From: a virus
Taxonomy: Duplodnaviria; Heunggongvirae; Uroviricota; Caudoviricetes
Length of the DNA stretch: 18,162 nucleotides
Virus record (IMG/VR): IMGVR_UViG_2526164594_000016
Span: 1-18,162 of that record
Direction: 5' to 3' (one strand)
Within the stretch, counting starts at the first letter, position 1; every line of letters begins with the position of its first letter. Shown here one piece after another: positions 3,125-18,162 of this stretch. The notes beneath the pieces are model-generated. The model had not been told where the DNA came from and made no database searches. It saw nothing but the letters and a program-made list of their open reading frames with translations. A program made the position numbers and the translations under genes.

Positions 3125-3224
3125 AGAATACCGATAATGGACCGCCATCGGGGACCCGGCCCCGCACCAACAACCCTGTTATGGTGTCGTCTGCTCTTCC
3201 TGATAAGCTAATGGCGGTTTGTGA

Positions 3225-3300
3225 TGGTGGCCCTTGCTGGATTTGAACCAGCGACCTGGCGATTATGAGTCGCTCGCTCTCACCACTGAGCTAAAGGGCC
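3225..3300 (-). tRNA. tRNA-Ile2 type (anticodon CAU, ileX/ileZ-like; formally could be tRNA-Met)
   Basis: Manual fold: acceptor GGCCCUU/AAGGGCC, anticodon loop CUCAUAA, T loop GGUUCAAAUCC, CCA encoded; closely resembles E. coli ileX from memory. Confidence 0.8.
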
Positions 3301-3328
3301 GAGCCAAAAAATAATAATCAGATGAAAA

Positions 3329-4042
3329 TCAATAATCAAGCCCTTGCCTGGATACATATCTGTCTGGCGGGAAGCCATAATAGCGGTGAAATACAGAAAT
3401 AAAGTAGGACCGGCTTGAATAACCACATTTTTCTGCTACAGCCTGTCCATATCCATACCGGGAACATAACATATTTACAGCAACACGCATCCGCTCTTCC
3501 AGCAACAAGCGACTGAACATGCCCCCTTCATTTTTCAGTTTTGTCTTTAACAAACTCTCACTCATATGCAACTGTAGAGCAATCGCACCAAGCGTCCAGC
3601 TTGCTGATATATCTGTCTGAATTATCGCCCTGACTTTGGCACTTATGCTGGATAAACATCCACTTAAAAACAATGACATCCGTTCATCTGTTTCAAACAG
3701 AGACAGGCAGGCCATCATAAGAAACATATCCGTGACCTCTCCGGAAAATCCCTGGCTGGTAATTAAAGCCGCAGCCAACGCAGGATTGTTGGGTTCCAGC
3801 AACAGGTAAAGCGGAATGTCAGTCAGACGAGTCCTCGTCAGCTTATGCTGACTTTCCAGATATTGACTTACGACGGATTCGCTTATATCGACAATTTTAA
3901 CTTTGCCATAATGCATAAGGAAAAGCTCCCTGATGCATTTGGTGGCCAGAACGACTGAGCCTGGCTTAAGTGACAACGTATCCTTTTCAAGAAAAATATT
4001 AATTGGGGAGCAAACCATGATAACTGAACAGACAACAGCCAT
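3329..4042 (-). CDS. AraC/XylS-family transcriptional regulator (prophage moron; resembles the prophage-encoded PsrA/PsrB/PatE class in general architecture)
   Basis: 237-aa ORF; C-terminal double HTH typical of AraC family (…GYSSRSYFISVFHRYYGFPP…); no clear Shine-Dalgarno at the first ATG, so start uncertain. Confidence 0.75.
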   Translation of the reverse strand: MAVVCSVIMVCSPINIFLEKDTLSLKPGSVVLATKCIRELFLMHYGKVKIVDISESVVSQYLESQHKLTRTRLTDIPLYLLLEPNNPALAAALITSQGFSGEVTDMFLMMACLSLFETDERMSLFLSGCLSSISAKVRAIIQTDISASWTLGAIALQLHMSESLLKTKLKNEGGMFSRLLLEERMRVAVNMLCSRYGYGQAVAEKCGYSSRSYFISVFHRYYGFPPDRYVSRQGLDY

Positions 4043-4136
4043 TATAATTTTACTTTCATTAGCAATTGGTTAGCTCAATTATAGCCCCAAAAGGTAAATT
4101 ATCATCAACACATAAGCAAAGGACTGACAGGTGCCG

Positions 4137-4144
4137 CCCCCCCC
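4137..4144. repeat. Homopolymeric C8/G8 tract in the intergenic region upstream of the AraC-family gene
   Basis: cccccccc at 4137-4144, read directly. Confidence 0.9.
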
Positions 4145-4177
4145 ACCAGCCGCCCATTTACCACAAATAAAAAGCCT

Positions 4178-4375
4178 TCAGGACTGAATGCGTCTGTAAC
4201 AACCGCACTGATAGTCTGCCAGACCCGCCATAACCAGCTGGGTCAGTATTAACTGGCAGCGTTCGCGTGAAAGGTAAGTATTCTGCGCAATCTCCCCGAC
4301 TGTCGCCGGTTCGGTAACGCTTAATTCATTAAACACCACTCTGGCGGTTTCTGTCATATCCTGCTGTTTTAGCAT
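4178..4375 (-). CDS. Small putative winged-helix DNA-binding protein (65 aa); the longer 106-aa form from ATG 4498 is less likely
   Basis: ATG at 4375 preceded by AAGGG; the longer form would start directly after the terminator U-tract with no ribosome-binding site. Confidence 0.4.
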   Translation of the reverse strand: MLKQQDMTETARVVFNELSVTEPATVGEIAQNTYLSRERCQLILTQLVMAGLADYQCGCYRRIQS

Positions 4376-4498
4376 GTCTTTTTCCCTTTTCCGGTTAACG
4401 TGACATACCAATAACTCTTGTCGAAAAAGCCAGCAAGTTGAAAGACCGGTATTAGCAACCACCAGCGCGTTTAACGCCCCGTGCCGTTTTTCAGTCAT

Positions 4499-4522
4499 AA
4501 AAAAACCCGCAAAAAGCGGGCT
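4499..4522 (-). terminator. Intrinsic terminator downstream of the Q-like gene (tR'-like position)
   Basis: minus-strand GAGCCCGC-UUUUU-GCGGG followed by U7 (plus A7 at 4499-4505). Confidence 0.55.
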
Positions 4523-4599
4523 CTTTCAAATGTCCATGTCTGCTATTCGCCTCGCGGTACAGCTTTGCGAAGCTTACCGGAATTGAAGCAGTTTTTACG

Positions 4600-5166
4600 T
4601 CAAAAAGCAATAACTTTTTTCTCTATACCAAAAGCCATAACCATTGGTTTGTACAAAATAAATTCTGCCACCTTTAGCCAATGCTCAATGCGTCTTTCAC
4701 AGGTTCTTAAACTCCATTCCGGATGTGCATCATTCAGCAATTCAGCCATTTTGCGCTTAGTCATCCCCCGCCCCACATAACGCTGACTCAGAACATTGAG
4801 CAGCCCGGGATAACCTGCCAGTACTTCACCAATAACCCTATCGATTATTAACGCCTCTGAATCGGTACAATGTGCCAGCCAGCTTTTTTGATTGCCGTTG
4901 ATCATATCCCGCAAAAAAGCCTCAAGTTCAGGTTTGTCCAGACCCGCTTTTTTCATCCTCCGGAGCGCCTCGTTAATTGCCGTTTTTGTCAGCTTTTTAG
5001 AGGTCAGTAATTGGTTGAACATATTTCCCGTCTTACCGTCGCCAATATACGACCAACGCCCCCACATACGCAGTTTCCCCTGGATCCAGACACTTTCCAG
5101 CGTTTTCAGGCGTAAATGCTCACCGCTTTTGCCTGTAATTTCCGGGTATATCATATTTATGCTCAC
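4600..5166 (-). CDS. Putative late-gene antiterminator Q-like protein (non-lambda Q type); first ATG at 5154, ORF opens with GTG at 5166
   Basis: 188-aa ORF directly downstream of rusA and upstream of terminator, tRNAs and late-region morons; assignment by synteny, not by recognised motif. Confidence 0.5.
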   Translation of the reverse strand: MSINMIYPEITGKSGEHLRLKTLESVWIQGKLRMWGRWSYIGDGKTGNMFNQLLTSKKLTKTAINEALRRMKKAGLDKPELEAFLRDMINGNQKSWLAHCTDSEALIIDRVIGEVLAGYPGLLNVLSQRYVGRGMTKRKMAELLNDAHPEWSLRTCERRIEHWLKVAEFILYKPMVMAFGIEKKVIAF

Positions 5167-5216
5167 TCACTTTCAATTTTGTAAATCTTCACGCCCAGCC
5201 GCCCACCAGAAACGAG

Positions 5217-5522
5217 CTAGCCGCGCACAATATTGATTTCATCAAACTGCTCGTCGTCTATGAGAAGTCCGGCATGCGTCAGCGCATCCAGTGGTGCTTT
5301 CAGGATATTGTCCAGGTCACGACGGCGCTTATCCGGTGGCTCTGCAATAATCTTTATCGCCAGCCTTCCGGACAGGTTTAATTTCAGCCGCTGCTGGCGA
5401 ACAATAAGTGCCACATCCCGGCGATAACGCTCACCGGCTTTTGATACAAAATATGTGCTGCCACGACGTCGCCAGTAGGTGTTCACCGTCGGCGGGTAAG
5501 GCAAAACAAACTCTATACGCAT
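5217..5522 (-). CDS. rusA: RusA-family Holliday junction resolvase
   Basis: 101-aa ORF, motifs PPTVNTYWRR and DKRRRDLDNILKAPLDALTHAGLLIDD match the RusA family; AGAGG Shine-Dalgarno 8 nt upstream of ATG. Confidence 0.85.
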   Translation of the reverse strand: MRIEFVLPYPPTVNTYWRRRGSTYFVSKAGERYRRDVALIVRQQRLKLNLSGRLAIKIIAEPPDKRRRDLDNILKAPLDALTHAGLLIDDEQFDEINIVRG

Positions 5523-5534
5523 CAGTAACCTCTT

Positions 5535-6638
5535 TTACCCGAGCACGCCGGTTGCAAAGGCGTGATCAAGAAAACGAAAAATTAAATCAACCTGGGAACC
5601 ATGCTTTTCTTCGAACGCCAGCGGATCCGCATGAAGCTCGTTGTGATGCTCCCGACACAGCGGTAGCGTGAAAATATCGTGGGATTTTGTTCCCATTCCG
5701 CCCTGACCATGACCAATCAGATGATGAGGATCGTCCGCTGGCTTACCACAACACGCACACGGCTGTGTCTTTACCCAGCGTGTGTATTTCTCATTTACCC
5801 AGCGGCGACGTTTAGGTCGTTTCATGAAGGATTCCGGAGACTCCGGATCAACGGCAATGCTGACCACCGTCTTTTCCTGTGGTGGGTTCTGTTGCTGGTG
5901 GGTGTGAGGCGGTAGCGCAATATTTTTTGTGCGCTGCTTCAGTATGCTGGTGGCGGTCTGTTCTCCCGGTATGATGTCGCTTTCACGGTATACGGAGCGG
6001 ATTTTTTCCGCCGGTAATCCCAGAGAGCGACGCGATACTGCCTCAGGTAATGCGTCCACCACCTGATTGCAGACTGCCCACCAGGATAATTCAGCCAGCG
6101 ATAATTCCCGCTCCTGCGTGCCATTCATTACATGGCGTATGACGTCAATCATCCAGGCTGTCAGATTTTGTTGAGTAAGTTGCTCAAGTGATTCGGAGGT
6201 CTGGTCGCGCAGCTGGTTGTCGCAGTGCCAGCACAACACCATTGCGCCAGCACCGTAACTGTGAATAACGGTTTCGCTGTGATGATAATCGCCGTGTGGC
6301 CACTGGCAGGATTTCACGTGACGTAATAACCAGTCAGACAGTGCACCAGCGCCGCCAGCTGCACGAATCACCCGCTCATCGCTGAAAAATGGCAGCAGTG
6401 ATTTATCTTCCGCCAGCGGCTGGCGAACAGCAGGAACCGCTCCAGATGGCAGCGCCCGCATGTTTTTCGGTTCCGGCTCCACCAGCACCCTGCCGCGATG
6501 AAAAACTGGCAATGATTCACGACCGGGCTTAAGGACCACCAGCCCGAGTTCCGGAACCAGAACAGGTCGAAGTAATACCCGCACATTACCTCCAGACGCG
6601 CTGACGGTAGCAGGCATGTGTCCGTGGCAGATGTGCAC
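5535..6638 (-). CDS. DUF968-family lambdoid prophage protein (YdfU-like) with C-terminal HNH-like Cys/His motif; start uncertain (GTG 6638 or ATG 6617)
   Basis: C-terminal CACCGKPADDPHHLIGHGQGG…LCREHHNELH motif; position between rem-like ORF and rusA. Confidence 0.7.
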   Translation of the reverse strand: MHICHGHMPATVSASGGNVRVLLRPVLVPELGLVVLKPGRESLPVFHRGRVLVEPEPKNMRALPSGAVPAVRQPLAEDKSLLPFFSDERVIRAAGGAGALSDWLLRHVKSCQWPHGDYHHSETVIHSYGAGAMVLCWHCDNQLRDQTSESLEQLTQQNLTAWMIDVIRHVMNGTQERELSLAELSWWAVCNQVVDALPEAVSRRSLGLPAEKIRSVYRESDIIPGEQTATSILKQRTKNIALPPHTHQQQNPPQEKTVVSIAVDPESPESFMKRPKRRRWVNEKYTRWVKTQPCACCGKPADDPHHLIGHGQGGMGTKSHDIFTLPLCREHHNELHADPLAFEEKHGSQVDLIFRFLDHAFATGVLG

Positions 6639-6858
6639 GAACAGGAAGATATACAGAAACGGTCCAGGTCAGACGATCAGCGTTCAGACTCCGCTCCACA
6701 CAGACACCGCGACGCAGATACGCCTCTTGAAGCATATCTGCCTCATCGATCGTACAGAACAGATAGTGAAACCAGCCATACTGAGGCGCACGAAAACGCC
6801 TCCCCTGCTTAATTTCCGGGTCGGCTTCAGAATTGTGGGATTTTATGTGTTGTGTCAT
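6586..6858 (-). CDS. Small hypothetical prophage protein (90 aa) in the rem position of Qin-like prophages
   Basis: ATG with GGAG 8 nt upstream; overlaps the 5' end of the DUF968 ORF in another frame. Confidence 0.4.
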   Translation of the reverse strand: MTQHIKSHNSEADPEIKQGRRFRAPQYGWFHYLFCTIDEADMLQEAYLRRGVCVERSLNADRLTWTVSVYLPVRAHLPRTHACYRQRVWR

Positions 6859-6935
6859 CGGATTCTCCGGTGACAGCAGGTGTCAGTTGTTCAGGCTGAC
6901 TGCGCGAATTGTAAGGCAATACGCCGGAATGTACA

Positions 6936-6964
6936 AACAGAAAACCCGTCAGTAAGACGGGCTT
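6936..6964 (-). terminator. Intrinsic terminator downstream of the ygiW-like gene
   Basis: minus-strand AGCCCGUC-UUACU-GACGGGUU followed by a U-rich tail. Confidence 0.5.
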
Positions 6965-6979
6965 AACAAGCAGGGGCGG

Positions 6980-7324
6980 TTACTTTAATAATTTCAGTGC
7001 CTTTACATCAACTTCAACACTGCTCAGGTCTTTATCAATTTCACCCTCAATTCTTACTTTGTCTTTCGGAGAAACATTCTGCCCGGCCCATACGCTGTCA
7101 TCAATATCCGTGACAATTGTCCCGCTATTGTCACGAAACTCATAACGTTCATCACCCACTTTTTTAACGATGCTCCCTTCAAGGATAACCCATGCATCAT
7201 CCTTCAGTTCTTTTGCCTGCGCTACTGTTGAACGCTCTGCTTCTGGCCCCTGGAAACCACCCTGCTGTGCAAAAGCGCCAAAAGACACACCGGAAATAAG
7301 TGCTGCAATCAATACCTTTTTCAT
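6980..7324 (-). CDS. YgiW/YdeI (BOF, OB-fold) family periplasmic protein with signal peptide
   Basis: 114-aa ORF, N-terminal MKKVLIAALISGVSFGAFAQ signal sequence; family resemblance from memory. Confidence 0.75.
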   Translation of the reverse strand: MKKVLIAALISGVSFGAFAQQGGFQGPEAERSTVAQAKELKDDAWVILEGSIVKKVGDERYEFRDNSGTIVTDIDDSVWAGQNVSPKDKVRIEGEIDKDLSSVEVDVKALKLLK

Positions 7325-7443
7325 TCATAGTCCTCTTTCAGAGATGAACATTCAAACAGCATTTTCAGTATGGTAAAGCGCGGGTGCGTTGAGGATGCCT
7401 GACACATCAGAGGTGGCGGGAGATTACTCCCCCGCCTGGTCTC

Positions 7444-7599
7444 TTACTTCTCAGATTCGTAGTCTACGAAGACAGCGACCTCCGTCTGACCGGTTCGGAT
7501 TCGCACCTCGCAGAGGTCTTTCCTCGTTACCAGTGCCGTCACTATGACGGTTAAACAGATGACGATCAGGGCGATTAACATCGCCTTTTGCTGCTTCAT
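7444..7599 (-). CDS. hok: Hok/Gef-family type I toxin (HokD-like, 51 aa)
   Basis: MKQQKAMLIALIVICLTVIVTALVTRKDLCEVRIRTGQTEVAVFVDYESEK matches the Hok family; AAGGAG upstream; in-frame upstream extension to 7656 is in the usual mok position. Confidence 0.85.
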   Translation of the reverse strand: MKQQKAMLIALIVICLTVIVTALVTRKDLCEVRIRTGQTEVAVFVDYESEK

Positions 7600-7889
7600 A
7601 GCCTGCTTCTCCTTGCCTTTCGGCACGTAAGAGGCTAACCTACATGTGTTCAGCATGGATTGAGCCTCAGATTAATGTTAAGCGTCTTGCAGGACGCGTA
7701 ATGTTAACTGGGGCTTTTCTCTATCTGCCGTTGGTGTTCATGCCCGAGGCAGATAGCCTCAAGCACCCGCAGCAATTCTACTTAACTATCCTTTTCCCGC
7801 AAACCGTTTTTATCCCCAGCGGCAAATCGAATACACCACCAGCGCCACCGCCATCGCAATTCCTACCGTTGTGAATGCTTCAGGCCAGG

Positions 7890-8447
7890 TCATTGATTCA
7901 CCTCCTGCGGCGGTTCTGGTAGCGACATCCAGTGGGTTGCTTGCCTAAGATCATTACCCGGACTAACTGCTATACCTCCGCGCCGGAACGTGCCTCCGAG
8001 ATAGCGTGCGGAATATATTAATGGCCCAGCCTCGCTATCGATATTCATCGAAATAAGCACGTTCTGGCTCTTTTCAGGCATTCGCTCAGTACAGCTTATC
8101 CAGCCATCCAGAGTTATCGGAGATCTGGTTGACGTTTCCGAGATTTCCCGAAAATTGTTGGTTGACGAATTCTTATTTTCCCGAAAGTTTCCGGCCTGAA
8201 GCATGGCGACGCGGCAGGCGTTCCAGCCATCAGCATATGTTTTAGTTACACCGTCGAGATGGCAGGTAAGCAAATCCATTTCATCAGGCACTACCATTGC
8301 TATCGGCTCTGCTTCCAGTGATGCCAGCGCGATACGAAACACATTAGCCAGCAGGCTGTCTGAAGACTTGTTATCGTGCGCCGAGTCGCTCAGGAAGCCT
8401 GTGATGTATGATTTAATCTCCGCGCGTTCTCTGGTAATAGTGCTCAT
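7890..8447 (-). CDS. DUF551-domain prophage protein
   Basis: 185-aa ORF; C-terminal WISCTERMPE … THWMSLPEPP pattern typical of DUF551; AAGGA upstream of ATG. Confidence 0.6.
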   Translation of the reverse strand: MSTITRERAEIKSYITGFLSDSAHDNKSSDSLLANVFRIALASLEAEPIAMVVPDEMDLLTCHLDGVTKTYADGWNACRVAMLQAGNFRENKNSSTNNFREISETSTRSPITLDGWISCTERMPEKSQNVLISMNIDSEAGPLIYSARYLGGTFRRGGIAVSPGNDLRQATHWMSLPEPPQEVNQ

Positions 8448-8448
8448 A

Positions 8449-8667
8449 TCAGTTTTCCTTATACGGATTAATTTTATTGTGCAGTGCGCTGAATGATTCC
8501 CATGTCACATCGGTATATAGCTCAATAACTGGTTCAAATGTCCTTCCAATTATCCAGACCAGTAATAGCGGGGATATCGGTATCATCAACACTATAAACA
8601 GAATGAAAAACAGAAACTCTGTTGTTCTGCTCTTTCGTGGGTAATTTTTTTCTAAATAATGTTTCAT
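8449..8667 (-). CDS. Small predicted membrane protein (72 aa)
   Basis: Hydrophobic core FLFFILFIVLMIPISPLLLVWIIG; ATG preceded by a hairpin and an upstream AGGAGG. Confidence 0.4.
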   Translation of the reverse strand: MKHYLEKNYPRKSRTTEFLFFILFIVLMIPISPLLLVWIIGRTFEPVIELYTDVTWESFSALHNKINPYKEN

Positions 8668-8794
8668 TTCTTACCGCCCTTTCGGGCGGCCTCCTGATGT
8701 TCTGAGGGTGCAGGAATCCCTCCGGTTAAGGATTTAATAAAAATCGTTTCTGATTTAAATCTTCAGTATTTAGTTGTTAGTTGGTTTATCGCCT

Positions 8795-9106
8795 TTATGC
8801 TTCAGCCTTATTTCGCAACCAGACACAAACCGGGCCATCTTCCGTATCATGAATGGAACCAATAAACCAGCCATCGCCCTCTGGTCGTTCCGGTTCCCAT
8901 GCAGAAATATCAGCATCACACGCATCAAGGTCAGCACATCCTTCATCTCTGAAGCAGAGGACGTATTGAAGATTATTTTCCTCCATCCAGGCGTTAAACT
9001 CTTCCGTTGAAATATATTCCCGACCATCACAGAATTTTTCATATTCAGGATGTGTCCAGTAGCCATATCCGTCACGAACTACCGGCATTTCTTTAATTTC
9101 ACTCAC
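8795..9106 (-). CDS. Hypothetical acidic prophage protein (103 aa, GTG start)
   Basis: AGGAGG 7 nt upstream of GTG; start overlaps the stop of the upstream gene by 8 nt. Confidence 0.5.
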   Translation of the reverse strand: MSEIKEMPVVRDGYGYWTHPEYEKFCDGREYISTEEFNAWMEENNLQYVLCFRDEGCADLDACDADISAWEPERPEGDGWFIGSIHDTEDGPVCVWLRNKAEA

Positions 9107-9326
9107 TGTTAACCTCCTGCAACGCTACACGATACGCCTTCTTTATCCACGCCTTACTGCCATATAATTTCGTCTTCATAATAAACACACCTGCACGACT
9201 CGCCGATATCCCCGGACAGGTTAACAGCACAGCATCCACCACACGGTTATGCTTCCGAAACTCCATTACAGTACTGCTGATAACCACCTGCCCCACCGGG
9301 CCGTAATCCTGATACAGGATTTTCAC
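9099..9326 (-). CDS. Hypothetical prophage protein (75 aa, GTG start)
   Basis: AGGAGG upstream; GTGA overlap with the upstream gene stop. Confidence 0.45.
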   Translation of the reverse strand: MKILYQDYGPVGQVVISSTVMEFRKHNRVVDAVLLTCPGISASRAGVFIMKTKLYGSKAWIKKAYRVALQEVNSE

Positions 9327-9604
9327 GCAGACACCCTCCTGTCGAAATAAACGTAGTTATTCACTATGCGCAGCGGCATGCCTAATTTTCTGGCAATTTC
9401 CCTTCTTTGCATGCCTCTCTGATGCAGTTGCCGCGCCAGCTCAATATCACGCTGAGAATATTTTGCCGACGGGTGAAAATCACCACGTAACATCATGCTG
9501 ATGCCCAGCTCCCGTGCCTTCGTTCTCACTGCCGCTTCAGTTCGTCCGATAAGTGCGCCAACGCTTTTTACCTTCATCGTTCCCGCACACTGCCGGAGTA
9601 TCAT
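9323..9604 (-). CDS. Putative HTH DNA-binding protein (about 93 aa); start uncertain
   Basis: Two HTH-like segments (GALIGRTEAAVRTKAREL; RREIARKLGMPLRIV); ORF open to 9727 but that would overlap the upstream gene. Confidence 0.45.
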   Translation of the reverse strand: MILRQCAGTMKVKSVGALIGRTEAAVRTKARELGISMMLRGDFHPSAKYSQRDIELARQLHQRGMQRREIARKLGMPLRIVNNYVYFDRRVSA

Positions 9605-9636
9605 GATTTCCGCCCGGCACCACGTCTTCCACCCAC

Positions 9637-10353
9637 TCACCGCTGCTGTTCTCTGGTGGCGGTAATATCCCGGAGAATATCCCGGCACTTGTTCAGCTCC
9701 CGCAGCGCGGCGCAGACTCGCTCCCACTTCTGAACCTGACCTTTTGCCCGGCGCAGCTCGCGGTTAGCCACATGCAGCGATGGTAAAATCAGACCATCCG
9801 GATGCTTTCTGGTGAACGACGGCTGTGACTGCACTGTGACCGCCACACTTTCCGTTTTTATTTCTTCCTGTGTTTCCGCTTCCCCGACTGGTAACGCAAC
9901 ACCTGCTGGCTGAGGAAAGGCTTTACCATCCGTTTCCGTTATGGATGCGGCTTTCGGCTCTGCCGGTAAATCAGCGCCCGGTATGCAGTACCGAAATTTA
10001 CCGCCCTGATTCACGCGAATCAGACGCCCTTTGCTGATTGCCATGGCCAGTGATGAATTCGCCCGGCGGGAGGTAATCCCGAACATCAGTGCCAGCTCAT
10101 CCGCCGTTTGTGGGCCATGATGTTCAATCGCCTCAGTCAGCATTTGCGCTGTCACTTTCGGTACCGGTGACACTGGTTCACTTTCACCAGTCTGAGTCAG
10201 CCACCACATCGACCCCTTGTTATCCGCTTCACCACGGCGCTTCAGTTTCCACAGTTCGTTGACAGCATCTTCGCGGCTGATTCCAAGGCGCGATGCCACT
10301 ACCTGTGAAGAGGCTTTTTTCAGTGCTTTCAGTGCGTCAAATACGGTTTCCAT
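9637..10353 (-). CDS. Prophage protein with winged-helix-like N-terminal regions (possibly DUF1627-like)
   Basis: 238 aa from the ATG at 10353 with GGAGG 8 nt upstream; the ORF opens at TTG 10371. Confidence 0.5.
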
Positions 10354-10386
10354 TAATATTTCCTCCGACAAAATCGTTTCTCAGAT

Positions 10387-11049
10387 TCAAATAAAACCAG
10401 CTGCCTTCCGGCGTTCGTATTCCTGTTTCAGCCGTTCAATTGGCGTTGGCCCTTGCGGGTGTTTCGCCCCTTCCAGTTGTCGTCGCACTGGCGGAACACT
10501 CATCCCGTTACCAACATGCTTTGCCCATTTCGTCAGTTGCCGTTCCGCAAGTCGTTTTAACTCACCTTGCGTCATCTGGCGCTCAATCCCTCTGGTACGC
10601 ATTTCGAGGCAGATGTGGTACAGCACAGGCTGTGGCCACGGGTATTTATCACTCCCGTCGTATCGCCAGGATTCATTGCGCCAGCGCCGGTACTCTTCCA
10701 TCACGGCATCCACCGTAAGACCAAATGGATTTGCCCCACTCTCCGAAATCAGCGCAACAAACTCAGCCAGGTCCGGGGGCCACGTTTCACCCGCCCGGCA
10801 GCGGTCCATGCACTGACGGCACACCAGACGGATTTGCTGTTCAGTCATCGCACCAATCTGGGCAATCCAGAGCTTCGAAGGTGCGGCCCCGTTCTTCTGA
10901 GTCCAGCGGTTCGAATACACCTCCCCCATGAGCTCCCACAGCTTCCAGGCCGTTTCCGTTGCTGATAAATCCGTTGTCACGTTCCCACTGTTCGCGTGCA
11001 GCCCGGATTTCCTGAACTGCCCGTGATGCCGTGCCACCTGATGCTGCAT
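10387..11049 (-). CDS. Lambda P-like replication protein (helicase loader); start uncertain (ATG 11049, 10929 or 10848)
   Basis: C-terminal two-thirds resemble lambda P from memory (…WPPDLAEFVAL…YPWPQPVLYHICLEM…); no Walker A motif. Confidence 0.7.
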   Translation of the reverse strand: MQHQVARHHGQFRKSGLHANSGNVTTDLSATETAWKLWELMGEVYSNRWTQKNGAAPSKLWIAQIGAMTEQQIRLVCRQCMDRCRAGETWPPDLAEFVALISESGANPFGLTVDAVMEEYRRWRNESWRYDGSDKYPWPQPVLYHICLEMRTRGIERQMTQGELKRLAERQLTKWAKHVGNGMSVPPVRRQLEGAKHPQGPTPIERLKQEYERRKAAGFI

Positions 11050-11896
11050 GGCTTCCCCCCTTGCTGACTGGTTTTACCTGTGCCCTGACGTGCTGCACGT
11101 GGCGGGCAAATTTCTGCTCCCACTGAACCTGCGTGAAAACCTTCCCCTCCGCCATCCAGTAATCCCGGAATGCGGCAAGCTCAGCAGGTGTAAATTCCGG
11201 CTCAGGCAGAGCCATACCCCACACTGCTGCCCGTTGTCGAAAATCCGGCGACGGCTGCCAGACAGTAGTCATCGAAAATTTCCCGATCGGTTCGCTCAGG
11301 CCGTCCAGGTATTCAGGTTCGGCTGTCTGCAACGGCGCACCATTCGACTCACTGGTCGGAATACTCTCGCGCGCGTTATGTGTGGGGTTTAATTCTGTAT
11401 CTGTATCTTTATCTGTATCTTTATCTGTATCTTTATCTGTCGTGACTTGTCGTGACAGATGCGTGACACGTCGTGACTCATCGTGACAATCAGCATTATG
11501 TTTCCGCAGCTTTTCCCGCTCCCGCTGCGCTCTCTTGCGCTCTGCCGGGGATTTTGCCGTTTGCGAAACGTTACCATTGTCCTCTTTCAGCACCTGACGT
11601 TTTTCCCATCCGGAAATAAGGTCACCATCCAGAACCCGCCCCTGCATTGCATGCAAAATTGAATCAATTACGTCTTCCGTCACATCAAGCGCACTTGCTA
11701 AATCTTCCGTCGTGACATCAATGTGACCACGTAGTGACACGCCGTGACATGTCGTGACATTTCGTGACGCGCTCACCAGAAGATGGATATACACTGCCAT
11801 CACTGTTGCGATTGGCTGTCCTGATACCCTGGCAATCGTTCGCCACTTGGGGTCATTTGGCATGTCATGCCACAATCTGAGCCAGGCATTAGCCAT
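10841..11896 (-). CDS. Lambda O-like replication initiator (replisome organiser); origin iterons lie inside the gene
   Basis: 351 aa from ATG 11896 (GAGGTGA upstream); N-terminal DNA-binding-like domain, DKDT-repeat linker, C-terminal domain; iteron arrays within the coding sequence. Confidence 0.75.
   Translation of the reverse strand: MANAWLRLWHDMPNDPKWRTIARVSGQPIATVMAVYIHLLVSASRNVTTCHGVSLRGHIDVTTEDLASALDVTEDVIDSILHAMQGRVLDGDLISGWEKRQVLKEDNGNVSQTAKSPAERKRAQREREKLRKHNADCHDESRRVTHLSRQVTTDKDTDKDTDKDTDTELNPTHNARESIPTSESNGAPLQTAEPEYLDGLSEPIGKFSMTTVWQPSPDFRQRAAVWGMALPEPEFTPAELAAFRDYWMAEGKVFTQVQWEQKFARHVQHVRAQVKPVSKGGSHAASGGTASRAVQEIRAAREQWERDNGFISNGNGLEAVGAHGGGVFEPLDSEERGRTFEALDCPDWCDD
11394..11441. 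repeat. Tandem hexamer/dodecamer repeat (tctgta/tcttta x8), AT-rich, encoding the DKDTDKDTDKDTD linker of the O-like protein
   Basis: Read directly from sequence. Confidence 0.9.
11441..11490. repeat. Iteron array A: five phased CGTGAC repeats (spacing 10-11 bp), the likely origin iterons
   Basis: cgtgac at 11441, 11451, 11462, 11472, 11482, next to the AT-rich tandem repeat. Confidence 0.7.
11709..11770. repeat. Iteron array B: six phased GTGAC repeats (spacing 9-11 bp) inside the 5' part of the O-like gene
   Basis: gtgac at 11712, 11723, 11734, 11745, 11754, 11764. Confidence 0.6.
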
Positions 11897-11964
11897 ACTC
11901 ACCTCTTCTGATACCGAACTTTACCCTCGAACATCCGGAAGAAATCCGGCATGAATATTGTTGG

Positions 11965-12390
11965 TCAATGCACGACAACAGCATTACCAGGCTGACCCCC
12001 ACTGTTAGTCAGGGTGCCCCAGGCGATCGCCGCTGCGACAAAATCATCCACATCTTTCACCAGCCGATCCCTCCGTTCGACGATCTCACGGTAATATTCA
12101 GAGCTGTGACTGCGCATACGGGCCACCAGCAGAGGCGGCATTGCCTTTTCGATCGCCGGTAACAGAGCCTGCATTTTTTCAACTGCATCAGGGGTGTCTT
12201 TCTCTATCCAGCGGAAAATTTTCTGGGTATTGCGAGCCAGGGCTTCCGGATGGCTGTCGTCGTACAGTTCAGGAAACGTCATACCCAACTCAAAATAAGC
12301 CTGGGTTATTCCAGCTGCCGGAACTTTTTCGCCATCAGGACGCGCCCAGGCATTCATCGCCATGCGGATGTGTTCATGCTTGATTTTCAT
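11965..12390 (-). CDS. YdaT-family protein (cII-position gene of Rac-like prophages)
   Basis: 141 aa from ATG 12390 (GGGGGG upstream); starts MKIKHEHI and ends VVVH like Rac YdaT from memory. Confidence 0.65.
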   Translation of the reverse strand: MKIKHEHIRMAMNAWARPDGEKVPAAGITQAYFELGMTFPELYDDSHPEALARNTQKIFRWIEKDTPDAVEKMQALLPAIEKAMPPLLVARMRSHSSEYYREIVERRDRLVKDVDDFVAAAIAWGTLTNSGGQPGNAVVVH

Positions 12391-12458
12391 GAATCCCCCC
12401 TTGGTTAGAAGGCGGATTATGATCAGAATCGGGAATGACAACCGTCGGTATGTGTAAC

Positions 12459-12617
12459 TCATATTTGAGCGCCCCGGCAGTGACTGGCCTGAATTAGCAA
12501 CGCCCATTTCCACGGAACGTCTTCCCCCCACATGCTGACTGTGGTTTTTGACGTTCCTAGAGCGGCGGCTGTTTTAACAACTCCGCCAAAATAGCCTAAT
12601 ACTTCTGATTTTTTCAT
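12459..12617 (-). CDS. Cro/YdaS-like small HTH repressor (52 aa)
   Basis: ATG 12617 with GGAG upstream; YFGG-x-x-K-x-A-x-x-LG HTH motif; divergent from the cI-like gene. Confidence 0.6.
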   Translation of the reverse strand: MKKSEVLGYFGGVVKTAAALGTSKTTVSMWGEDVPWKWALLIQASHCRGAQI

Positions 12618-12708
12618 GAGTCGCTCCATAAAACTGAACGCCAAAAGTTTAATAATCAAAACCAAAGAAAGTCAAGAAACAAAACCATCTGTGTTTTAAA
12701 ATCAAAAC
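12618..12708. promoter_or_regulatory. Divergent promoter/operator region between cro-like and cI-like genes
   Basis: 91-bp AT-rich intergenic region with repeated CAAAAC/GTTTT half-site-like motifs and short inverted repeats (for example aaaaccatctgtgtttt). Confidence 0.4.
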
Positions 12709-13347
12709 ATGAACAAGCAAACAATATCTGAACGCATAACCCAACGTATGCATGCGCTAAACTTGAAAGGCAAAGACCTTGTCAATGCCACTGGCGCATC
12801 AAAAGGCTCCGTAAGTCAATGGATGAACGGTGGAGGAGCGCCGTCCTCGCGTTACATAAGTTCACTGGCAAAGATATTGAAAGTAAACGAAAATTGGCTT
12901 CTTAATGGAGGAGAGTTAAATACAGGTGATTCGCTTGATCTATCTTTACCGCCGATAAAAACGGTTCCGCTACTATCACTTCAGCAGGCAGCAAGCTGGA
13001 GTGATTATATGAAAAATTCCTCAATAACCTCTTGTGTGCAGCTTGTCGGAGAAATCCCGGCCAATACCTTTGCTGTTGTTCTAGAGAGTGACAGTATGTC
13101 GACATCTGGTGGTGGAGTTTCCATCCCAAATGGTTCAACAGTTTTTGTTGATCCCGATCGAATCGTACAACCAGGAAATATTGTCCTTGCCTTACCCAAA
13201 GGGACCACAACGCCTGTCATTCGCAAACTGGAGATAGAAGGGCCGGATATTCTTTTAGTCCCCACGAATCCTCGCTACCCTTCAATTATGCTGGATGATC
13301 TATCTTGCATATTGGGAGTATGCTTTAAAATTCAACAAGATATTTAA
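12709..13347 (+). CDS. cI-like prophage repressor (N-terminal HTH-XRE, C-terminal S24 LexA-like autopeptidase)
   Basis: 212 aa; HTH near N-terminus; S24 motifs (ESDSM serine region, IRKL lysine region); ATG without Shine-Dalgarno. Confidence 0.85.
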   Translation: MNKQTISERITQRMHALNLKGKDLVNATGASKGSVSQWMNGGGAPSSRYISSLAKILKVNENWLLNGGELNTGDSLDLSLPPIKTVPLLSLQQAASWSDYMKNSSITSCVQLVGEIPANTFAVVLESDSMSTSGGGVSIPNGSTVFVDPDRIVQPGNIVLALPKGTTTPVIRKLEIEGPDILLVPTNPRYPSIMLDDLSCILGVCFKIQQDI

Positions 13348-13639
13348 CCAACCTCATCTATTTGATTAACTGTATGCCATCGTAGTGATGGCGTAACAGC
13401 TGCCTGCTTAAAATGTTTTGATAAAAAAACATTGACCTTAAATGTTCGCTTTTCTAAACTTCATTCATTCCCTCACCCCGCCCCACAGAATGCAGGGCAA
13501 TACTTCGAGTTACCAGGCAGTGGTCAGGGGTTAAGTAGCCAGCCCGAGGCGTAAGAACATGACGGCAGGGTTCAACTTTAATAACTATGCAGCAGGTTTT
13601 TGTTCCGCTACCCCGGCGTTAAGGGGAAATGAGGTCAAC

Positions 13640-13792
13640 ATGGATACGCTCAATCTTGGCAACAACGAATCTCTGGTATGTGGCGTGTTCCCCAACCAGG
13701 ACGGTACGTTCACCGCGATGACGTATACCAAAAGCAAAACGTTTAAAACTGAAGCTGGCGCGCGTCGCTGGTTAGCCAGAAACACTGACTGA
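13640..13792 (+). CDS. YdfA/YdaF-like small prophage protein (DUF1391-like, about 50 aa)
   Basis: ATG 13640 with GAGG 5 nt upstream; ORF opens at 13559; position directly downstream of the repressor as ydfA in Qin. Confidence 0.5.
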   Translation: MDTLNLGNNESLVCGVFPNQDGTFTAMTYTKSKTFKTEAGARRWLARNTD

Positions 13793-13803
13793 TGAGGTTG
13801 ACG

Positions 13804-14442
13804 ATGGAATTTAAAGATTTACCTCCTTCAATCCAGGAGATTGCAGCACACACACTTCGTCATCGTCTGAACGAACTTGAATTGGAATCGGTAACGAAAA
13901 AAGACACTGATAATATGGCTCGTAATGTGCGCGATGCGTTTACCGGATTGTATTTCTGTGCGTCTATAAATAAACACGACTCAGAGAGTGTGGCAAATAA
14001 AATTGCAGAAACGACAGCGCAAAACATCAATACGAAACCAACGGAAGAAGAAATTGATCAGTTTGCTCATGATGCTGGTTTAAAAAACAAGAAAGAAAAA
14101 TCGCCATATGCGGGGAACATGTTTGTTTATGACAATCTCATCAGAATTCGTGGCGAAATTCCGGCGGAATACCTGGCAAGAGTCCATCAGGCATTGCTTA
14201 AAAATTTGGAAACAGAATTATTTGATGGCAACACTAACGGTTTCTTCATGGTATCAGGCCTTGAGAAAGACTGGGATGCAGAAAAACGCTGGAATGTTGC
14301 TACATGGTTATTCAGTAACAGAGCCGCTGCACTGGAAGCTTCGGCATGTATTTGCGGCCTGTTCTTAACAGACCACAAATATAATCTGGATGTGTACAGT
14401 TATATTTACGCTGAACACGGTCCACTCTGGATTGACTGGTAA
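13804..14442 (+). CDS. Uncharacterised protein (212 aa from ATG 13804; 216 aa from ATG 13792), no recognisable motif
   Basis: GAGG 5 nt upstream of ATG 13804; upstream ATG 13792 overlaps the preceding stop (TGATG). Confidence 0.6.
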   Translation: MEFKDLPPSIQEIAAHTLRHRLNELELESVTKKDTDNMARNVRDAFTGLYFCASINKHDSESVANKIAETTAQNINTKPTEEEIDQFAHDAGLKNKKEKSPYAGNMFVYDNLIRIRGEIPAEYLARVHQALLKNLETELFDGNTNGFFMVSGLEKDWDAEKRWNVATWLFSNRAAALEASACICGLFLTDHKYNLDVYSYIYAEHGPLWIDW

Positions 14443-14652
14443 TTATAAGGAAACACCAGCAGGGCCGCGGCGACCAACAGAACGATTAAAATCAATAATG
14501 CCATTATAAAGGACATTATTTAATTTATCGTCGAATGCTGATTCTGTGAGCCTCAACTCTGAATGAGTTTTTAATAACCCTGATTGCCTGAGTTGATTTA
14601 CCAGGCATTCAATCTGTTTTTCAATAAGCGGATTTCTTTTTTTGTTTGGCAT
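14443..14652 (-). CDS. Small convergent ORF (69 aa) of unknown function
   Basis: ATG 14652 preceded by GGAGG at 5 nt; stop codon directly abuts the stop of the 216-aa gene (TAATTA). Confidence 0.3.
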   Translation of the reverse strand: MPNKKRNPLIEKQIECLVNQLRQSGLLKTHSELRLTESAFDDKLNNVLYNGIIDFNRSVGRRGPAGVSL

Positions 14653-14989
14653 TTTATCCTCCATTGAGGTTCTGGGTTAAAAATGGAGACCAACACGCTG
14701 TCACGTGTGGTCGTGCGCCGGACACGGATAAGAATCCGGTACTGACAGTTTACTGAAAGGATATTTCCCTGAAAAGTCAGTGCATAACGCGAAAGCGTAC
14801 GGCGAAGCTCTTTCCCTTAGAAGGCTTGTCGTTAGATTTCTTCGAACGTGCGCTTCCGGTTGTGGCACTCCGCGAAATGGCGCGGCGGTAAGTATGGCGG
14901 GGTTATTCCTTCCCCATTGAGGACACCGGGTTGTCAGGTTGACCATACGCTTAAGTGACAACCCCGCTGCAACGCCCTCTGTTATCAAT

Positions 14990-15048
14990 TTTCTGGTGAC
15001 GTTTGGCGGTATCAGTTTTACTCCGTGGCTGCTCTGCCGCCCTTTTTA
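14990..15048 (+). ncRNA. dicF: DicF small RNA (ftsZ-targeting sRNA of the dicB operon)
   Basis: ttctggtgacgtttggcggtatcagttttactccgtggctgctctgccgccc followed by ttttt matches DicF from memory with about one mismatch; lies just upstream of dicB as in Qin. Confidence 0.65.
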
Positions 15049-15216
15049 AAGTGAATTTTGTGATGCGGTGAATGCGGCTAAGCGCACGCGGAACAGTTAA
15101 AACCAAAAACAGTGTTATGGGTGGATTCTCTGTATCCGGCGTTAATTGTTAACTGGTTAACGTCACCTGGAGGCACCAGGCACTGCATCACAAAATTCAT
15201 TGTTGAGGACGCGATA

Positions 15217-15405
15217 ATGGAAACGTTATTACCAAACGTTAATACGTCTGAAGGTTGTTTTGATATTGGTGTTCTGCTCAGTAACCGGGAGTTTACTGAA
15301 GATGCCATTAACATGAGGAAATATGAGCCTTATCTGCTCAATGATAATTCCATACTTTCCCGAATTGCTCTTCTTGAACTTGGTATTTTCGGAGAACGTC
15401 AATGA
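15217..15405 (+). CDS. dicB: DicB cell-division inhibitor
   Basis: 62 aa, METLLPNVNTSEGCF… matches K-12 DicB N-terminus from memory; GAGG 8 nt upstream. Confidence 0.8.
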   Translation: METLLPNVNTSEGCFDIGVLLSNREFTEDAINMRKYEPYLLNDNSILSRIALLELGIFGERQ

Positions 15406-15590
15406 CTTCAGCATTTGCACTGATGATGACGGTTTTTCTTATAACGGGTGAATCACAGAATGTGATTACCGGAATTTATGCCAGTAAAGAATCCTGCCTC
15501 CAGGCAAGAGACGAGCAAAAAATTTCTGGTGAATGCCTCCCGGTAAAAAAAGTATCGCTGTACCTGAATAACGAAACACCGGCTGGATAA
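15402..15590 (+). CDS. YdfD-like small membrane/lysis-type protein (62 aa)
   Basis: ATGA start/stop overlap with dicB; GGAG upstream; N-terminal hydrophobic segment FALMMTVFLITG. Confidence 0.55.
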   Translation: MTSAFALMMTVFLITGESQNVITGIYASKESCLQARDEQKISGECLPVKKVSLYLNNETPAG

Positions 15591-15682
15591 CCCTCCAGCC
15601 ATATTAACACCATACCAACGGATTAAAAATGCCAGCAATGGCAGGGATTTGTTCACCCTTAAATCTGTAATGAGGTTTATCA

Positions 15683-16927
15683 ATGAGCACTGATAAAGAA
15701 GAATTTGCGCTATATTGCGAAGCAAAAAATGACAAAGTCAGAAAACGTCTGGGAATTAAAGGTGGTTTTTACTGGACTACAGCAAAAAAATTATCTGTTG
15801 CCATCTCCCGCTGCATTACCGCAATGGATGACAACGATTATGATGAAGACGACTTTAAAAAACCCGTTCGCGTCCATTTACCCGTTGTGAATGACCTTCC
15901 ACCTGAAGGCGTGTTTGATACCGAATTCTGCAACCGATACGAAAAAGGCGGGGAAGATGGCATTACAATGGTATTTATCGCGCCCTCTCCCTCCGTGCAG
16001 GAGAAACCAGCCAGTACTGACAATACCAACGTCAACGGCGAAGACATGACGGAGATTGAGGAGAATATGCTCCTGCCGGTTTCTGGTCAGGAGCTGCCCA
16101 TTCGCTGGCTTGCGCAACACGGCAGCGAAAAACCAGTAACGCACGTTGCACGGGAAGAACTTCAGGCATTACATATAGCACGGGCGGAAGAACTGCCGGC
16201 TGTTACTGCCCTGGCCATTTCTCACAAAACAAAGCTGCTCGACCCGCTGGAGATTCGCGACCTTCACAAACTGGTACGCGACACTGACAAAGTTTTCCCT
16301 AATCCCGGTAATTCAGACCTGGGACTGATAACTGCTTTTTTCGAGGCATACCTGGACGCTGACTACACTGATCGGGGTCTGCTGACAAAAGAGTGGATGA
16401 AAGGAAATCGTGTTTCGCGTATCACCCGTACGGCTTCCGGTGCAAATGCCGGTGGCGGGAACAAAACCGATCGCAATCCGAATTTAGTACACACCTTCGA
16501 TACGCTGGATGTGGAGATTGCAGCAGCCACACTTCCGATGGATTTTAATATTTATGAAATTCCGGGCAGCGTTTATCGTCGCGCAAAAGAAATCGTCCTG
16601 AAAAGAGAAAGTCCGTTCAAAGAATGGTCCGCAGCACTTCGCGCAACCCCGGGTATTCTGGACTATTCCCGCGCCGCTATTTTTGCACTTATCCGGAGCG
16701 CTCACCCTGAGTTTTATCACTACCCGGGACGCCTTCAGGGGTATATCAACGCCTACTTAACGGAGACTGATCACGAGAACCCCAGCAAGGAAACTCTCAC
16801 TGCTGCACGACATACACCGGAAAAAGATATCCTGGAAGAAGTTAACCGCGAACTGTCTGCTAAGCAGGAAACAGAAGAAGAAAATGATGAAGAAAAACCG
16901 CAACCATCTTGCGCAATGGCAGAATGA
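15683..16927 (+). CDS. Uncharacterised acidic protein (414 aa), YdfE-position gene
   Basis: GAGG 9 nt upstream of ATG; no catalytic motif recognised; stop overlaps the ATG of the integrase fragment. Confidence 0.6.
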   Translation: MSTDKEEFALYCEAKNDKVRKRLGIKGGFYWTTAKKLSVAISRCITAMDDNDYDEDDFKKPVRVHLPVVNDLPPEGVFDTEFCNRYEKGGEDGITMVFIAPSPSVQEKPASTDNTNVNGEDMTEIEENMLLPVSGQELPIRWLAQHGSEKPVTHVAREELQALHIARAEELPAVTALAISHKTKLLDPLEIRDLHKLVRDTDKVFPNPGNSDLGLITAFFEAYLDADYTDRGLLTKEWMKGNRVSRITRTASGANAGGGNKTDRNPNLVHTFDTLDVEIAAATLPMDFNIYEIPGSVYRRAKEIVLKRESPFKEWSAALRATPGILDYSRAAIFALIRSAHPEFYHYPGRLQGYINAYLTETDHENPSKETLTAARHTPEKDILEEVNRELSAKQETEEENDEEKPQPSCAMAE

Positions 16928-17460
16928 TAATCAGAAGAAATCTGGCAAAAGACCGTTTTACAGTACCAAAAACACAGGCGGGAACCAATCGTGTGATTCA
17001 CCTTATTAAGCCCGCAATCGACGCTCTCCGGAGTCAGATGGCACTAACGAGACTGAGCAAAGAGCATATCATCGATGTTCACCTCAGAGAATTCGGCAGA
17101 ACAGAGAAACAAAAATGTACCTTTGTTTTTCAACCTGAAGTGTCAGCGAAAGTAAAAAATTATGGCGACCATTTTACCGTTGACTCAATAAGGCAGATGT
17201 GGGACGCAGCGGTAAAGCGTGCCGGAATCCGCCATCGCAAATCGTATCAGTCGAGACACACTTATGCCTGCTGGTCGTTAACAGCAGGAGCTAACCCGGC
17301 ATTCATTGCAAACCAGATGGGCCATGCAGATGCGCAAATGGTGTTTCAGGTGTACGGGAAATGGATGTCAGAAAATAATAATGCGCAGGTAACGCTGTTA
17401 AATACACAGTTAAGCGAGTTTGCCCCAACCATGCCCCATAACGAAGCGATGAAAAGTTAA
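16909..17460 (+). pseudogene. 5'-truncated tyrosine recombinase (phage integrase) C-terminal catalytic fragment
   Basis: Contains the beta-hairpin Lys region (VPKTQAGTNR), the RHTYA and GHAD…QVYGKW catalytic-domain motifs, but lacks the N-terminal half including the first catalytic Arg; first ATG at 16924. Confidence 0.7.
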
Positions 17461-17637
17461 TTTTTTATTTATCAATTAGTTAGATTGAATGACTCTTGAA
17501 ATCCATAATTCATAGATGTTTTTTACTATTCTGTGGGTTTTTGGGTGTTTTCTAAGTTTTTTCAGATGGTTGTATTTTTTCTAAAAATCCCTAATCTCGA
17601 TTTTGCTGTTTATTTGAGGCCTTTTTATGTCCCATAT

Positions 17638-17880
17638 ATGCCCCACAGATACCCCGCAGCCAAAATCAACAAAATGCCAAAAGGTTCTGTTCCTGCCCTG
17701 CAACAAGAAATGCTGCGACGTGTCAGTAAACGTTATGACGATGTAGAAGTGATCATCAAATCCACCAGCAACGATGGCCTTTCAGTTACTCGCACCGCCG
17801 ATAAAGATTCTGCAAAAACTTTTGTTCAGGAGACGCTGAAAGATACCTGGGAGTCTGCTGACGAGTGGTTTGTTCGCTAA
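17638..17880 (+). CDS. DinI-family (DinI/MsgA-like) protein, about 80 aa
   Basis: C-terminal [15 protein letters not shown] closely resembles DinI (ILQETWESADDWFV) from memory; start uncertain (ORF opens at 17533). Confidence 0.6.
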
Positions 17881-18162
17881 TTAACGAGTAAAATCAGTAA
17901 CGGCTGGAAATCATTCAATACTCGCACTATCGAAAGTTCACCAGCCAACCGCAGCACGTTCTTGCATACGAGGTGCCGCGTTTTACATGCTGTACCGAGA
18001 ATTAATTTCATTTTACGAAAAGTTAACCCGCCATTGCTATCTTAATTTTTTAAAACGAAGTTACCTCTGTCAGAGTCAAAAGCACAATTATCTCTTCCTA
18101 CAATCATTGAAACTGCGATTGATTCCCTGCTCAAAGGATGAGCCGCCCTTGTTTTAACAAGA

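Follow-up and report, generated by a model that had tools for sequence, protein, structure and literature searches.

A candidate two-part replication origin formed by paired iteron arrays inside the initiator gene of a lambdoid prophage

Origins in which two clusters of the same repeat divide the work, one serving unwinding and the other an auxiliary or regulatory role, are familiar from P1 (incC/incA), F (ori2/incC), phage P4 (ori/crr) and SaPI (ori), where the clusters are intergenic or flank genes. Elsewhere the origin lies within the initiator gene itself. In lambda ori, iterons followed by an AT-rich tract occupy the middle of gene O, in the part that codes for a linker, and in Stx-phage variants of this origin with six iterons the extra distal iterons can be bound weakly and be needed nonetheless (PMC7466680). 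Bacillus phage SPP1 carries oriL inside gene 38, and a second site for gp38, oriR, has a non-initiating role (PMC6316719); the iterons of RepA_N initiators are usually semi-palindromic with a poly-A centre (PMC7145576). Here we analyse an 18,162-nucleotide stretch of tailed-phage DNA (Caudoviricetes; positions 1 to 18,162 of IMG/VR record IMGVR_UViG_2526164594_000016), hereafter the window. The window is a lambdoid prophage whose replication-initiator gene contains two phased arrays, A and B, of the coding-strand motif GTCACG. Judged from comparative sequence data, the two arrays probably constitute one bipartite iteron-type phage replication origin within the initiator's own coding sequence.

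The initiator gene is on the minus strand, so that CGTGAC and GTGAC on the plus strand correspond to GTCACG and GTCAC on the coding strand. An earlier note on this DNA had described five CGTGAC copies about 10.3 bp apart beside an AT-rich tandem repeat and, about 270 bp away in the N-terminal coding region, six copies of GTGAC; both arrays were found as described (Table 1). In array A, GTGAC starts on the plus strand at 11442, 11452, 11463, 11473 and 11483 (spacings of 10, 11, 10 and 10 bp), and all five copies read CGTGAC, from 11441. The array B copies start at 11712, 11723, 11734, 11744, 11754 and 11764 (11, 11, 10, 10 and 10 bp on the plus strand, or 10, 10, 10, 11 and 11 bp in coding-strand order), and four of the six read CGTGAC. 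Every copy in both arrays lies on one strand; measured from first copy to first copy, the arrays are 270 bp apart, and 229 bp separate the last B copy from the first A copy. Tandem Repeats Finder (TRF) returned period-10 arrays at 11439-11488 and 11734-11768. The single inverted copy between the arrays, placed at about 11672-11680 by the earlier note, is also present, its position now refined (Table 1). Neither the close relative L002 nor any other tabulated relative has the second inverted copy (GTCAC on the plus strand, 11621-11625), which is therefore put down to chance. Across the whole window GTGAC occurs 41 times against 30.7 expected, which is unremarkable. When 2000 first-order Markov versions of the window were simulated, the largest one-strand GTGAC cluster within 60 bp held one to four copies (four in 2 of the 2000) and never reached the six and five observed, which excludes chance clustering of the motif. 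No further CGTGAC cluster that might represent a distant, oriR-like site was found in the window or in the 24.6-kb locus L001, and promoter or terminator consensus matches coinciding with the arrays were no commoner than in shuffled sequences.

The likeness to lambda ori that the earlier note had pointed out is borne out for array A, which codes for residues 137-152, at the end of a helix and the start of the linker, and is followed by an AT-rich tract that is the least stable DNA of the gene. As in lambda, the candidate origin lies in the part of the initiator gene that codes for the linker between the DNA-binding and partner-binding domains, and a P-type helicase-loader gene lies downstream. 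It differs from lambda ori in three ways: the initiator has a DnaT-like C-domain and no Phage_rep_O domain, so that the name 'O-like' given to it earlier expresses analogy; lambda iterons are dyad-symmetric units of about 19 bp, whereas here asymmetric 6-bp cores are directly repeated every 10-11 bp; and here a second array stands inside the sequence that codes for the DNA-binding domain. With SPP1 gp38 the locus may share a replisome-organizer-type initiator (as suggested by NCBI naming and weak matches to PHROG 4880 and 5968), and it shares directly repeated sequences plus an AT-rich element inside the initiator gene, and a second set of sites elsewhere. The SPP1 sites, however, are about 13 kb apart and each has an AT-rich element, whereas the arrays described here lie in one gene and array A alone has a putative unwinding tract; the sequence relationship is weak, with no Phage_rep_org_N match at E<=0.01. 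The N-domain is modelled with a fold like that of RepA_N initiators (pSK41/pTZ2162 RepA, PLE RepA) and of the N-terminal domain of DnaD (DnaD-NTD), with no membership at the sequence level, and our literature search found no bipartite in-loop array described for RepA_N or DnaD-NTD initiators.

Unlike the clusters of P1, F, P4 and SaPI, both arrays lie inside coding sequence and one of them in a structured domain, which locks iteron evolution to codon constraints and to a 21-bp indel step. In its layout, with the origin inside the initiator gene, the locus follows the style of lambda O, SPP1 gp38 and RepA_N; by membership it is none of them. What appears to be new on sequence comparison is the second array inside the code of a folded DNA-binding domain, the concerted switching and conservation of the arrays across Proteobacteria, and the footprints left at the codon level. 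Full-text searches found no earlier description of a two-array origin, in a coverage from which many subscription papers are missing, so that prior work is possible.

A first question is whether the repeats matter as DNA at all. They could lack any function at the DNA level and stem from a repetitive peptide (VT/SR/CH) or from chance, and the earlier note had allowed that array B might be pure VT/VS codon repetition; Val-Thr dipeptides do recur in the loop and linker that the arrays encode. We find this barely credible. A spacing of 10 or 11 bp brings the motif into each of the three reading frames, where it is read as A-S-R, as V-T, and as C-H or G-H, and the same iterons code for different peptides in different alleles. 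Among E. coli alleles, the five iterons of array A are kept while the peptide changes from RVTHLSRQ to ICHDMSRR, because a 10/11-bp spacer pair has been swapped. Clusters as large as those observed, moreover, arose in none of the 2000 simulations.

The synonymous sites carry the same message. We aligned the codons of 21 homologues of the GTCAC type, whose median nucleotide identity is 66%; they come from Enterobacterales, Pseudomonas, Bordetella, Acidovorax, Chromobacterium and others. Synonymous sites are saturated at conserved residues in general and frozen solely at the motif codons of array B, array A and the inverted copy. At control positions for Val, Thr and Gly, three or four codons are in use; Val32, for instance, is GTG in 5, GTA in 2, GTT in 7 and GTC in 7, and Thr20 uses all four codons. 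In array B, Val47 (GTC), Thr48 (ACG), Gly57 (GGT) and Val61 (GTC) are each invariant in 21 of 21, His58 is CAC in 20 of 20, and Ser44 (TCA) and Thr62 (ACG) keep their codons in 20 of 21. The array A codons for His (CAC, 18 of 18), Ser (TCA, 20 of 20) and Val (GTC, 20 of 20) are as constant, and Val72 in the inverted copy is GTG in 18 of 18 GTCAC-type relatives. Frame analysis, allele comparison and synonymous-site statistics together exclude the codon-repeat explanation. The alignments show that purifying selection acts on the nucleotides of both arrays independently of the protein code, and support the view that both act as real cis-acting DNA elements.

Comparison with related initiator genes, which the earlier note had suggested as a check, shows both arrays kept and switching together at the DNA level. 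Homologues were sampled as 49 loci from one-genome-per-species contigs, and 46 usable genes were classified by the dominant pentamer in two fixed windows of the coding sequence (CDS), nucleotides 118-205 for the loop and 340-520 for the linker. The classes of arrays B and A match in 45 of the 46 genomic loci: both are GTCAC in 24, GAACG in 10 and GTAAC in 4, and 7 loci have neither array. In the remaining locus (L042) array B is GAACG and array A is weak or absent. Three motif types, GTCACG, GTAACG and CGAACG, were found in the family, each present in both arrays of the same gene. The GTAAC type stands in unrelated backgrounds (L004 of Sphingomonas, L036 of Marinobacter, L026 and L027 of Pantoea/Enterobacter), and L026 and L027 are close sisters of the Erwinia locus L012, which has GTCAC in both arrays, so that both arrays differ between sisters. 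The inverted copy of L027 reads GTTAC, the reverse complement of that locus's own GTAAC motif.

Scanning IMG/VR with the family alignment brought up no more than close E. coli relatives, from which copy-number variation was taken. Divergent queries were used in two more IMG/VR scans, which supplied an out-of-sample set, and 13 additional distinct lineages in it have matching A and B motif types, including L135 and L136 (GTAAC), L215-L217 and L220 (GAACG) and L221 (GTCAC); the array-preserving comparison spans about 60 distinct relatives in total. The repeat units themselves, which recur at roughly one per turn of the helix, are alike, the 88 array-B and 81 array-A units sharing the profile (T)GTCACG(A/C), with G at +6 in 86% in both arrays and A or C at +7. 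These comparisons of sequence show that arrays A and B change specificity together across the family. In two environmental lineages from IMG/VR (L218 and L219), array A is of the GTCAC type and the loop peptide is GAACG-like (NATERGH), while the loop DNA contains neither GAACG nor GTCAC; this decay suggests that array-B nucleotides are kept only while they match array A. No residue outside the loop that discriminates the motif types stood out by eye in the protein alignment.

A few loci have other arrangements. L039 (a Serratia metagenome-assembled genome) and L049 (a Pantoea genome) code for initiators of 397 and 435 aa with an extra segment after the N-domain, and neither has array B; the position of array A is taken by clustered (A)CTACG(T) repeats in L049 and by a like stretch, rich in CTACG, in L039 (CDS nucleotides about 320-370 and beyond). 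In L024, L031 and L038 (Entomomonas, Ventosimonas) a (GATAAA)n run is preceded by at most one or two AACG-type copies and the loop is empty, and the initiator sites of these loci may be degenerate or lie elsewhere. Some arrays contain overlapping runs with 5-bp spacing (GTCACGTCACGTCACG) or the palindrome GTCACGTGAC (L012, CDS nucleotides 160-181 and 412-426; L008, L010, L020 and L029, about 149-165). On this pattern, the basic site may be a half-site that is also usable as a dyad.

The product of the gene bears on where the arrays are tolerated. A Pfam scan of the initiator (E<=0.01) gave PF17948 (DnaT), a single-stranded DNA-binding domain at residues 207-273, as its sole match, and no match to Phage_rep_O, Phage_rep_org_N or RepA_N (PF06970). 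Against NCBIfam PRK02854 (DnaT) it scored 94.5 bits with a cutoff of 201, and profile positions 82-156 alone matched; the initiator is not a full-length equivalent of DnaT and has the C-terminal single-stranded DNA-binding domain of that protein. PHROGs place it in 'replication initiation protein' families, with weak matches over the N-half to 4880 (3e-7), 5968 (1e-4) and 10469 'DnaD-like' (5e-9), and NCBI labels close relatives 'phage replisome organizer'. A family-profile search of PDB sequences returned nothing at E<=1. In an AlphaFold2 model with a mean predicted local distance difference test (pLDDT) score of 72, residues 1-100 form a confident N-domain with a helix-turn-helix (63-70, 74-84) and a beta wing (85-96), followed by a helix (117-143), a disordered linker (144-190) and the DnaT-type domain (about 207-275). 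In the model the N-domain adopts a winged-helix fold like those of DnaD-NTD and RepA_N initiators, and the C-domain has the predicted DnaT single-stranded DNA-binding fold. The protein is no homologue of lambda O; it joins a winged-helix N-domain, 'replisome-organizer-like', to a C-domain of the DnaT type. Array B codes for residues 43-62, a loop of the winged-helix domain; residues 46-62 are modelled at lower confidence (pLDDT about 70), and the loop tolerates insertions in the alignment. The inverted copy codes for the turn between helices 63-70 and 74-84. The two arrays are located where the protein tolerates change, in a surface loop and in the linker.

We propose that both arrays are read by the initiator's own winged-helix N-domain, each phased array presenting its sites on one face of the DNA. 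Array A with the AT-rich tract would be the site of unwinding and helicase loading, as in lambda ori, and the DnaT-type C-domain together with the P-like loader, the proposed partner that brings the host DnaB helicase, would then recruit DnaB. Array B would have an auxiliary part, raising local occupancy by the initiator; oligomers of the initiator would probably bridge it to array A and loop the DNA in between. Array B would be helpful and not essential, because a few lineages have lost it.

The choice of the N-domain as reader follows from what stays constant around the arrays. From locus to locus the genes upstream of the initiator are unrelated, the loader downstream is of the P-like kind in 17 loci, covering all motif types, and belongs to other families elsewhere, and the C-terminal halves of the initiators differ as well, which leaves the N-domain as the only constant partner of the arrays. 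The earlier note had raised the prospect that array B serves a second protein. More broadly, array B might be read by another phage or host DNA-binding protein, or at the level of mRNA or of a single-stranded form of the repeat; the DnaT-type C-domain does bind single-stranded DNA, and since the arrays lie inside the N-domain's own gene, comparison alone cannot separate that domain from such alternatives. Core and flank preferences are nevertheless identical in A and B and the switches are concerted, and the arrays persist against a changing set of neighbouring genes and C-terminal domains. Phages whose hosts are closely related (Erwinia, Pantoea, Enterobacter) have different motif types, which makes a host factor unlikely, and the reverse-complement copy is conserved and covaries, which fits recognition of the duplex and makes an RNA-level reader unlikely. 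A different reader is accordingly an improbable account of array B, and the suggestion of a second protein is not supported.

The AT-rich tract bears on how many origins there are. The tandem repeat is purine-rich on the coding strand, (GATAAAGATACA)n, and codes for DKDT repeats. No other 40-mer of the gene is as unstable (-43.0 kcal/mol, the mean being -58.6 with a standard deviation (sd) of 4.0), and in 11 of 11 genes profiled the least stable 40-mer lies directly 3' of array A in a purine-rich (GATAAA/GATACA/GAGAAG)n run. Among E. coli prophage genes that are otherwise 86-99% identical (L055-L134), the tract varies from 3 to 9 hexamer units.

The earlier note had also considered a duplicated origin. 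Array B would then be a second, independent origin, as its use of the same iteron in a copy number at least equal to that of array A might suggest, and in some profiled genes the stretch after B is the second or third least stable. That stretch, however, lies about 1.6 sd below the gene mean, the tract after A about 3.9 sd, and in GC-rich hosts the effect is lost; a (GATAAA)n run follows array A in nearly every array-A locus, with nothing comparable after array B. The two-array layout is also ancient and conserved across Proteobacteria, not the outcome of a recent duplication. The single unwinding element thus argues against a duplicated origin, for which we see very little chance, and array A with the AT-rich tract would form a lambda-like core. 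Among the possibilities that the earlier note had raised, a bipartite origin fits best.

The sizes of the arrays change in a way that respects both codes. Most relatives have four copies in array B and three or four in array A; the six and five copies of the window allele stem from a 7-codon (21-bp) insertion in the loop (TCHGVSL) and a separate one of equal length in the linker (HLSRQVT). Each 21-bp step amounts to seven codons and two iterons, so that the reading frame and the 10-11-bp repeat period are both kept, 21 bp being the smallest multiple of 3 near a whole number (two) of 10-11-bp iteron units. Loop insertions in other lineages range from 7 to about 22 aa, each built from extra iterons. 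In 80 E. coli-type IMG/VR contigs array B has six copies in 70 and four in 10, and array A has five or four. Within arrays the spacing across the family is 10 bp in 135 cases and 11 bp in 36, and the gap from the last B copy to the first A copy ranges from 188 to 319 bp in relatives.

Two further ideas concern the coincidence of binding site and binding domain. One, possible though doubtful, is that a phased initiator filament bridges B and A, wrapping the 20-30 turns that code for its own DNA-binding domain; this would be a new architectural class of phage origin. The other is a long shot: the loop encoded by array B would be part of the DNA-reading surface, the same nucleotides being both a site and the code for its reader. 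A change in array B would then alter site and reader together and could drive concerted specificity switches.

The initiator might also bind array B to the opposite effect. As a negative-control element, array B would titrate initiator, handcuff with array A or with a sister copy, or act as a transcription roadblock on the initiator and loader genes. Second iteron sets with a control role are established for iteron plasmids (P1, F, RK2), with handcuffing as at P1 incA and F incC. All the evidence for a shared reader (codon constraint, covariation, profile) applies equally to such an element. Array B lies 128 nucleotides inside the initiator reading frame and upstream of the loader gene, so that a bound array would be well placed for autoregulation; it has no unwinding tract of its own, and a few lineages have lost B and kept A, which a control locus would be expected to allow. 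A lytic-cycle phage origin, on the other hand, has a less obvious need for copy-number restraint than a plasmid, nothing in the sequence favours one sign of effect over the other, and the extra distal iterons of Stx phages are required for efficient replication and are not inhibitory (PMC7466680). We regard negative control as rather unlikely, though it is to be taken seriously, and favour array B as the auxiliary half of a bipartite origin.

Several points weigh against such an origin read by the N-domain. The literature yielded no binding, footprint or origin-mapping data for any member of the family. With the arrays inside the N-domain's own gene, linkage by itself is no proof that this domain reads them. 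The covariation counts carry no phylogenetic correction, and the independent motif switches number perhaps four to six. Array B is not obligatory, because three environmental IMG/VR lineages (L218, L219 and L222) keep array A alone (GTCAC or GTAAC, 10-bp spacing) with its purine-rich tract and lack array B (CDS nucleotides about 105-250, 360-420), and seven homologues have neither array. Looping, finally, has an ambiguous trace in the inter-array gaps. Of 19 distinct values, 15 differ from a multiple of 10 by no more than 2 bp (circular R 0.71, period 10.0), a hint, suggestive only, of a stereospecific relation; the period is about 10.0 bp, not the 10.5 bp of relaxed B-DNA, and is confounded by shared ancestry and by the arrays' own period, so that it falls short of demonstrating same-face looping.

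Initiators of this type are common, and we found no experimental characterisation of one in the literature. The comparison defines the candidate origin in concrete and testable terms, as a 6-bp core, two arrays and one unwinding tract, and points to a widespread two-part replication origin. Since array B can be destroyed by synonymous changes, its role can be tested with the protein unaltered. Replication incompatibility or immunity between co-resident prophages could rest on the specificity types, of which there are at least three. The locus would also be a natural case of overlapping codes, a protein-binding array kept inside the coding sequence of a folded domain, with footprints in codon choice, in the iteron frames that are permitted (GTAACG gives a TAA stop in one frame) and in the 21-bp indel size.

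Table 1. Features of the candidate origin and its genes, in coordinates of the window
Feature	Position	Strand	Description
Array A	11441-11487	(-)	five GTCACG iterons on coding strand (CGTGAC on plus strand); proposed origin-proximal initiator sites
Array B	11711-11768	(-)	six GTCAC(G) iterons on coding strand; proposed auxiliary/control initiator sites
Inverted motif copy	11679-11683	(+)	single; GTGAC on coding strand, codons Val72-Thr73
AT-rich tandem repeat	11394-11440	(-)	12-bp unit x3.9 (TRF), abuts array A; proposed DNA-unwinding element
Replication-initiator gene	10841-11896	(-)	351 aa counted from ATG
Lambda-P-like helicase-loader gene	10387-10848	(-)	directly downstream, 8-nucleotide overlap with initiator stop

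The gene order of the prophage is LexA-like repressor, Cro-like, YdaT/CII-like, initiator, lambda-P-like helicase loader and DUF1627 gene. A 661-bp query (11300-11960) is 100% identical to a prophage of E. coli strain 272 (locus L001) and was matched in 1818 of 5426 complete E. coli genomes, with coverage of at least 80% in 683, including prophages of O157 and O103 STEC (E. coli that produce Shiga toxin); relatives extend to Pseudomonas, Bordetella, Acidovorax and Sphingomonas. The region also resembles that of the Rac prophage (YdaU/oriJ) in gene order, with ydaS/ydaT-like genes, initiator and loader, and window positions 10841-11424, the C-terminal half, share 87.5% DNA identity with ydaU of Rac-SA53 (L224, 1501-2571). 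The N-half of that YdaU is unrelated, and an inverted repeat, TGTTCAAACA...TGTTTGAACA, stands in place of the GTCACG arrays; it adjoins a similar GATACAGATACAGAT run, and homology with the window stops within the AT-rich repeat, a tract that looks like a recombination joint between origin-binding modules. Neither DnaT nor repeats are mentioned in the Eru typing of Stx-phage replication regions (PMC8044961).

The loader matches Pfam PF06992 (Phage_lambda_P, 1.3e-15) and PHROG 109 'P-like helicase loader', and RefSeq names it 'replication protein P'. Its mechanical open reading frame (ORF; 10387-11049, minus strand) would start 209 nucleotides inside the initiator gene in another frame, and RefSeq places the start at 10848. 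PHROG 15931, a profile of 482 positions, covers both initiator and loader, which suggests that the two are fused or merged in some phage annotations. A pair of TGTGAC copies lies 11 bp apart on the plus strand inside the DUF1627 gene (9825-9840; starts at 9825 and 9836) and is probably due to chance, because there are just two copies and the C of CGTGAC is missing. At 12709-13347 (plus strand) a 212-aa ORF has HTH_3 (residues 17-64) and Peptidase_S24 (residues 113-197) domains, the layout of a CI/LexA-type repressor; the identical RefSeq record annotates just a 112-aa 'LexA family protein' at 13009-13347 and marks the neighbouring Cro/CI gene as frameshifted. Database copies of the initiator protein are very often labelled 'partial', because contigs end inside the gene, and single genomes hold up to five matching places; it seems that assemblies of co-resident prophages often break in the initiator gene.

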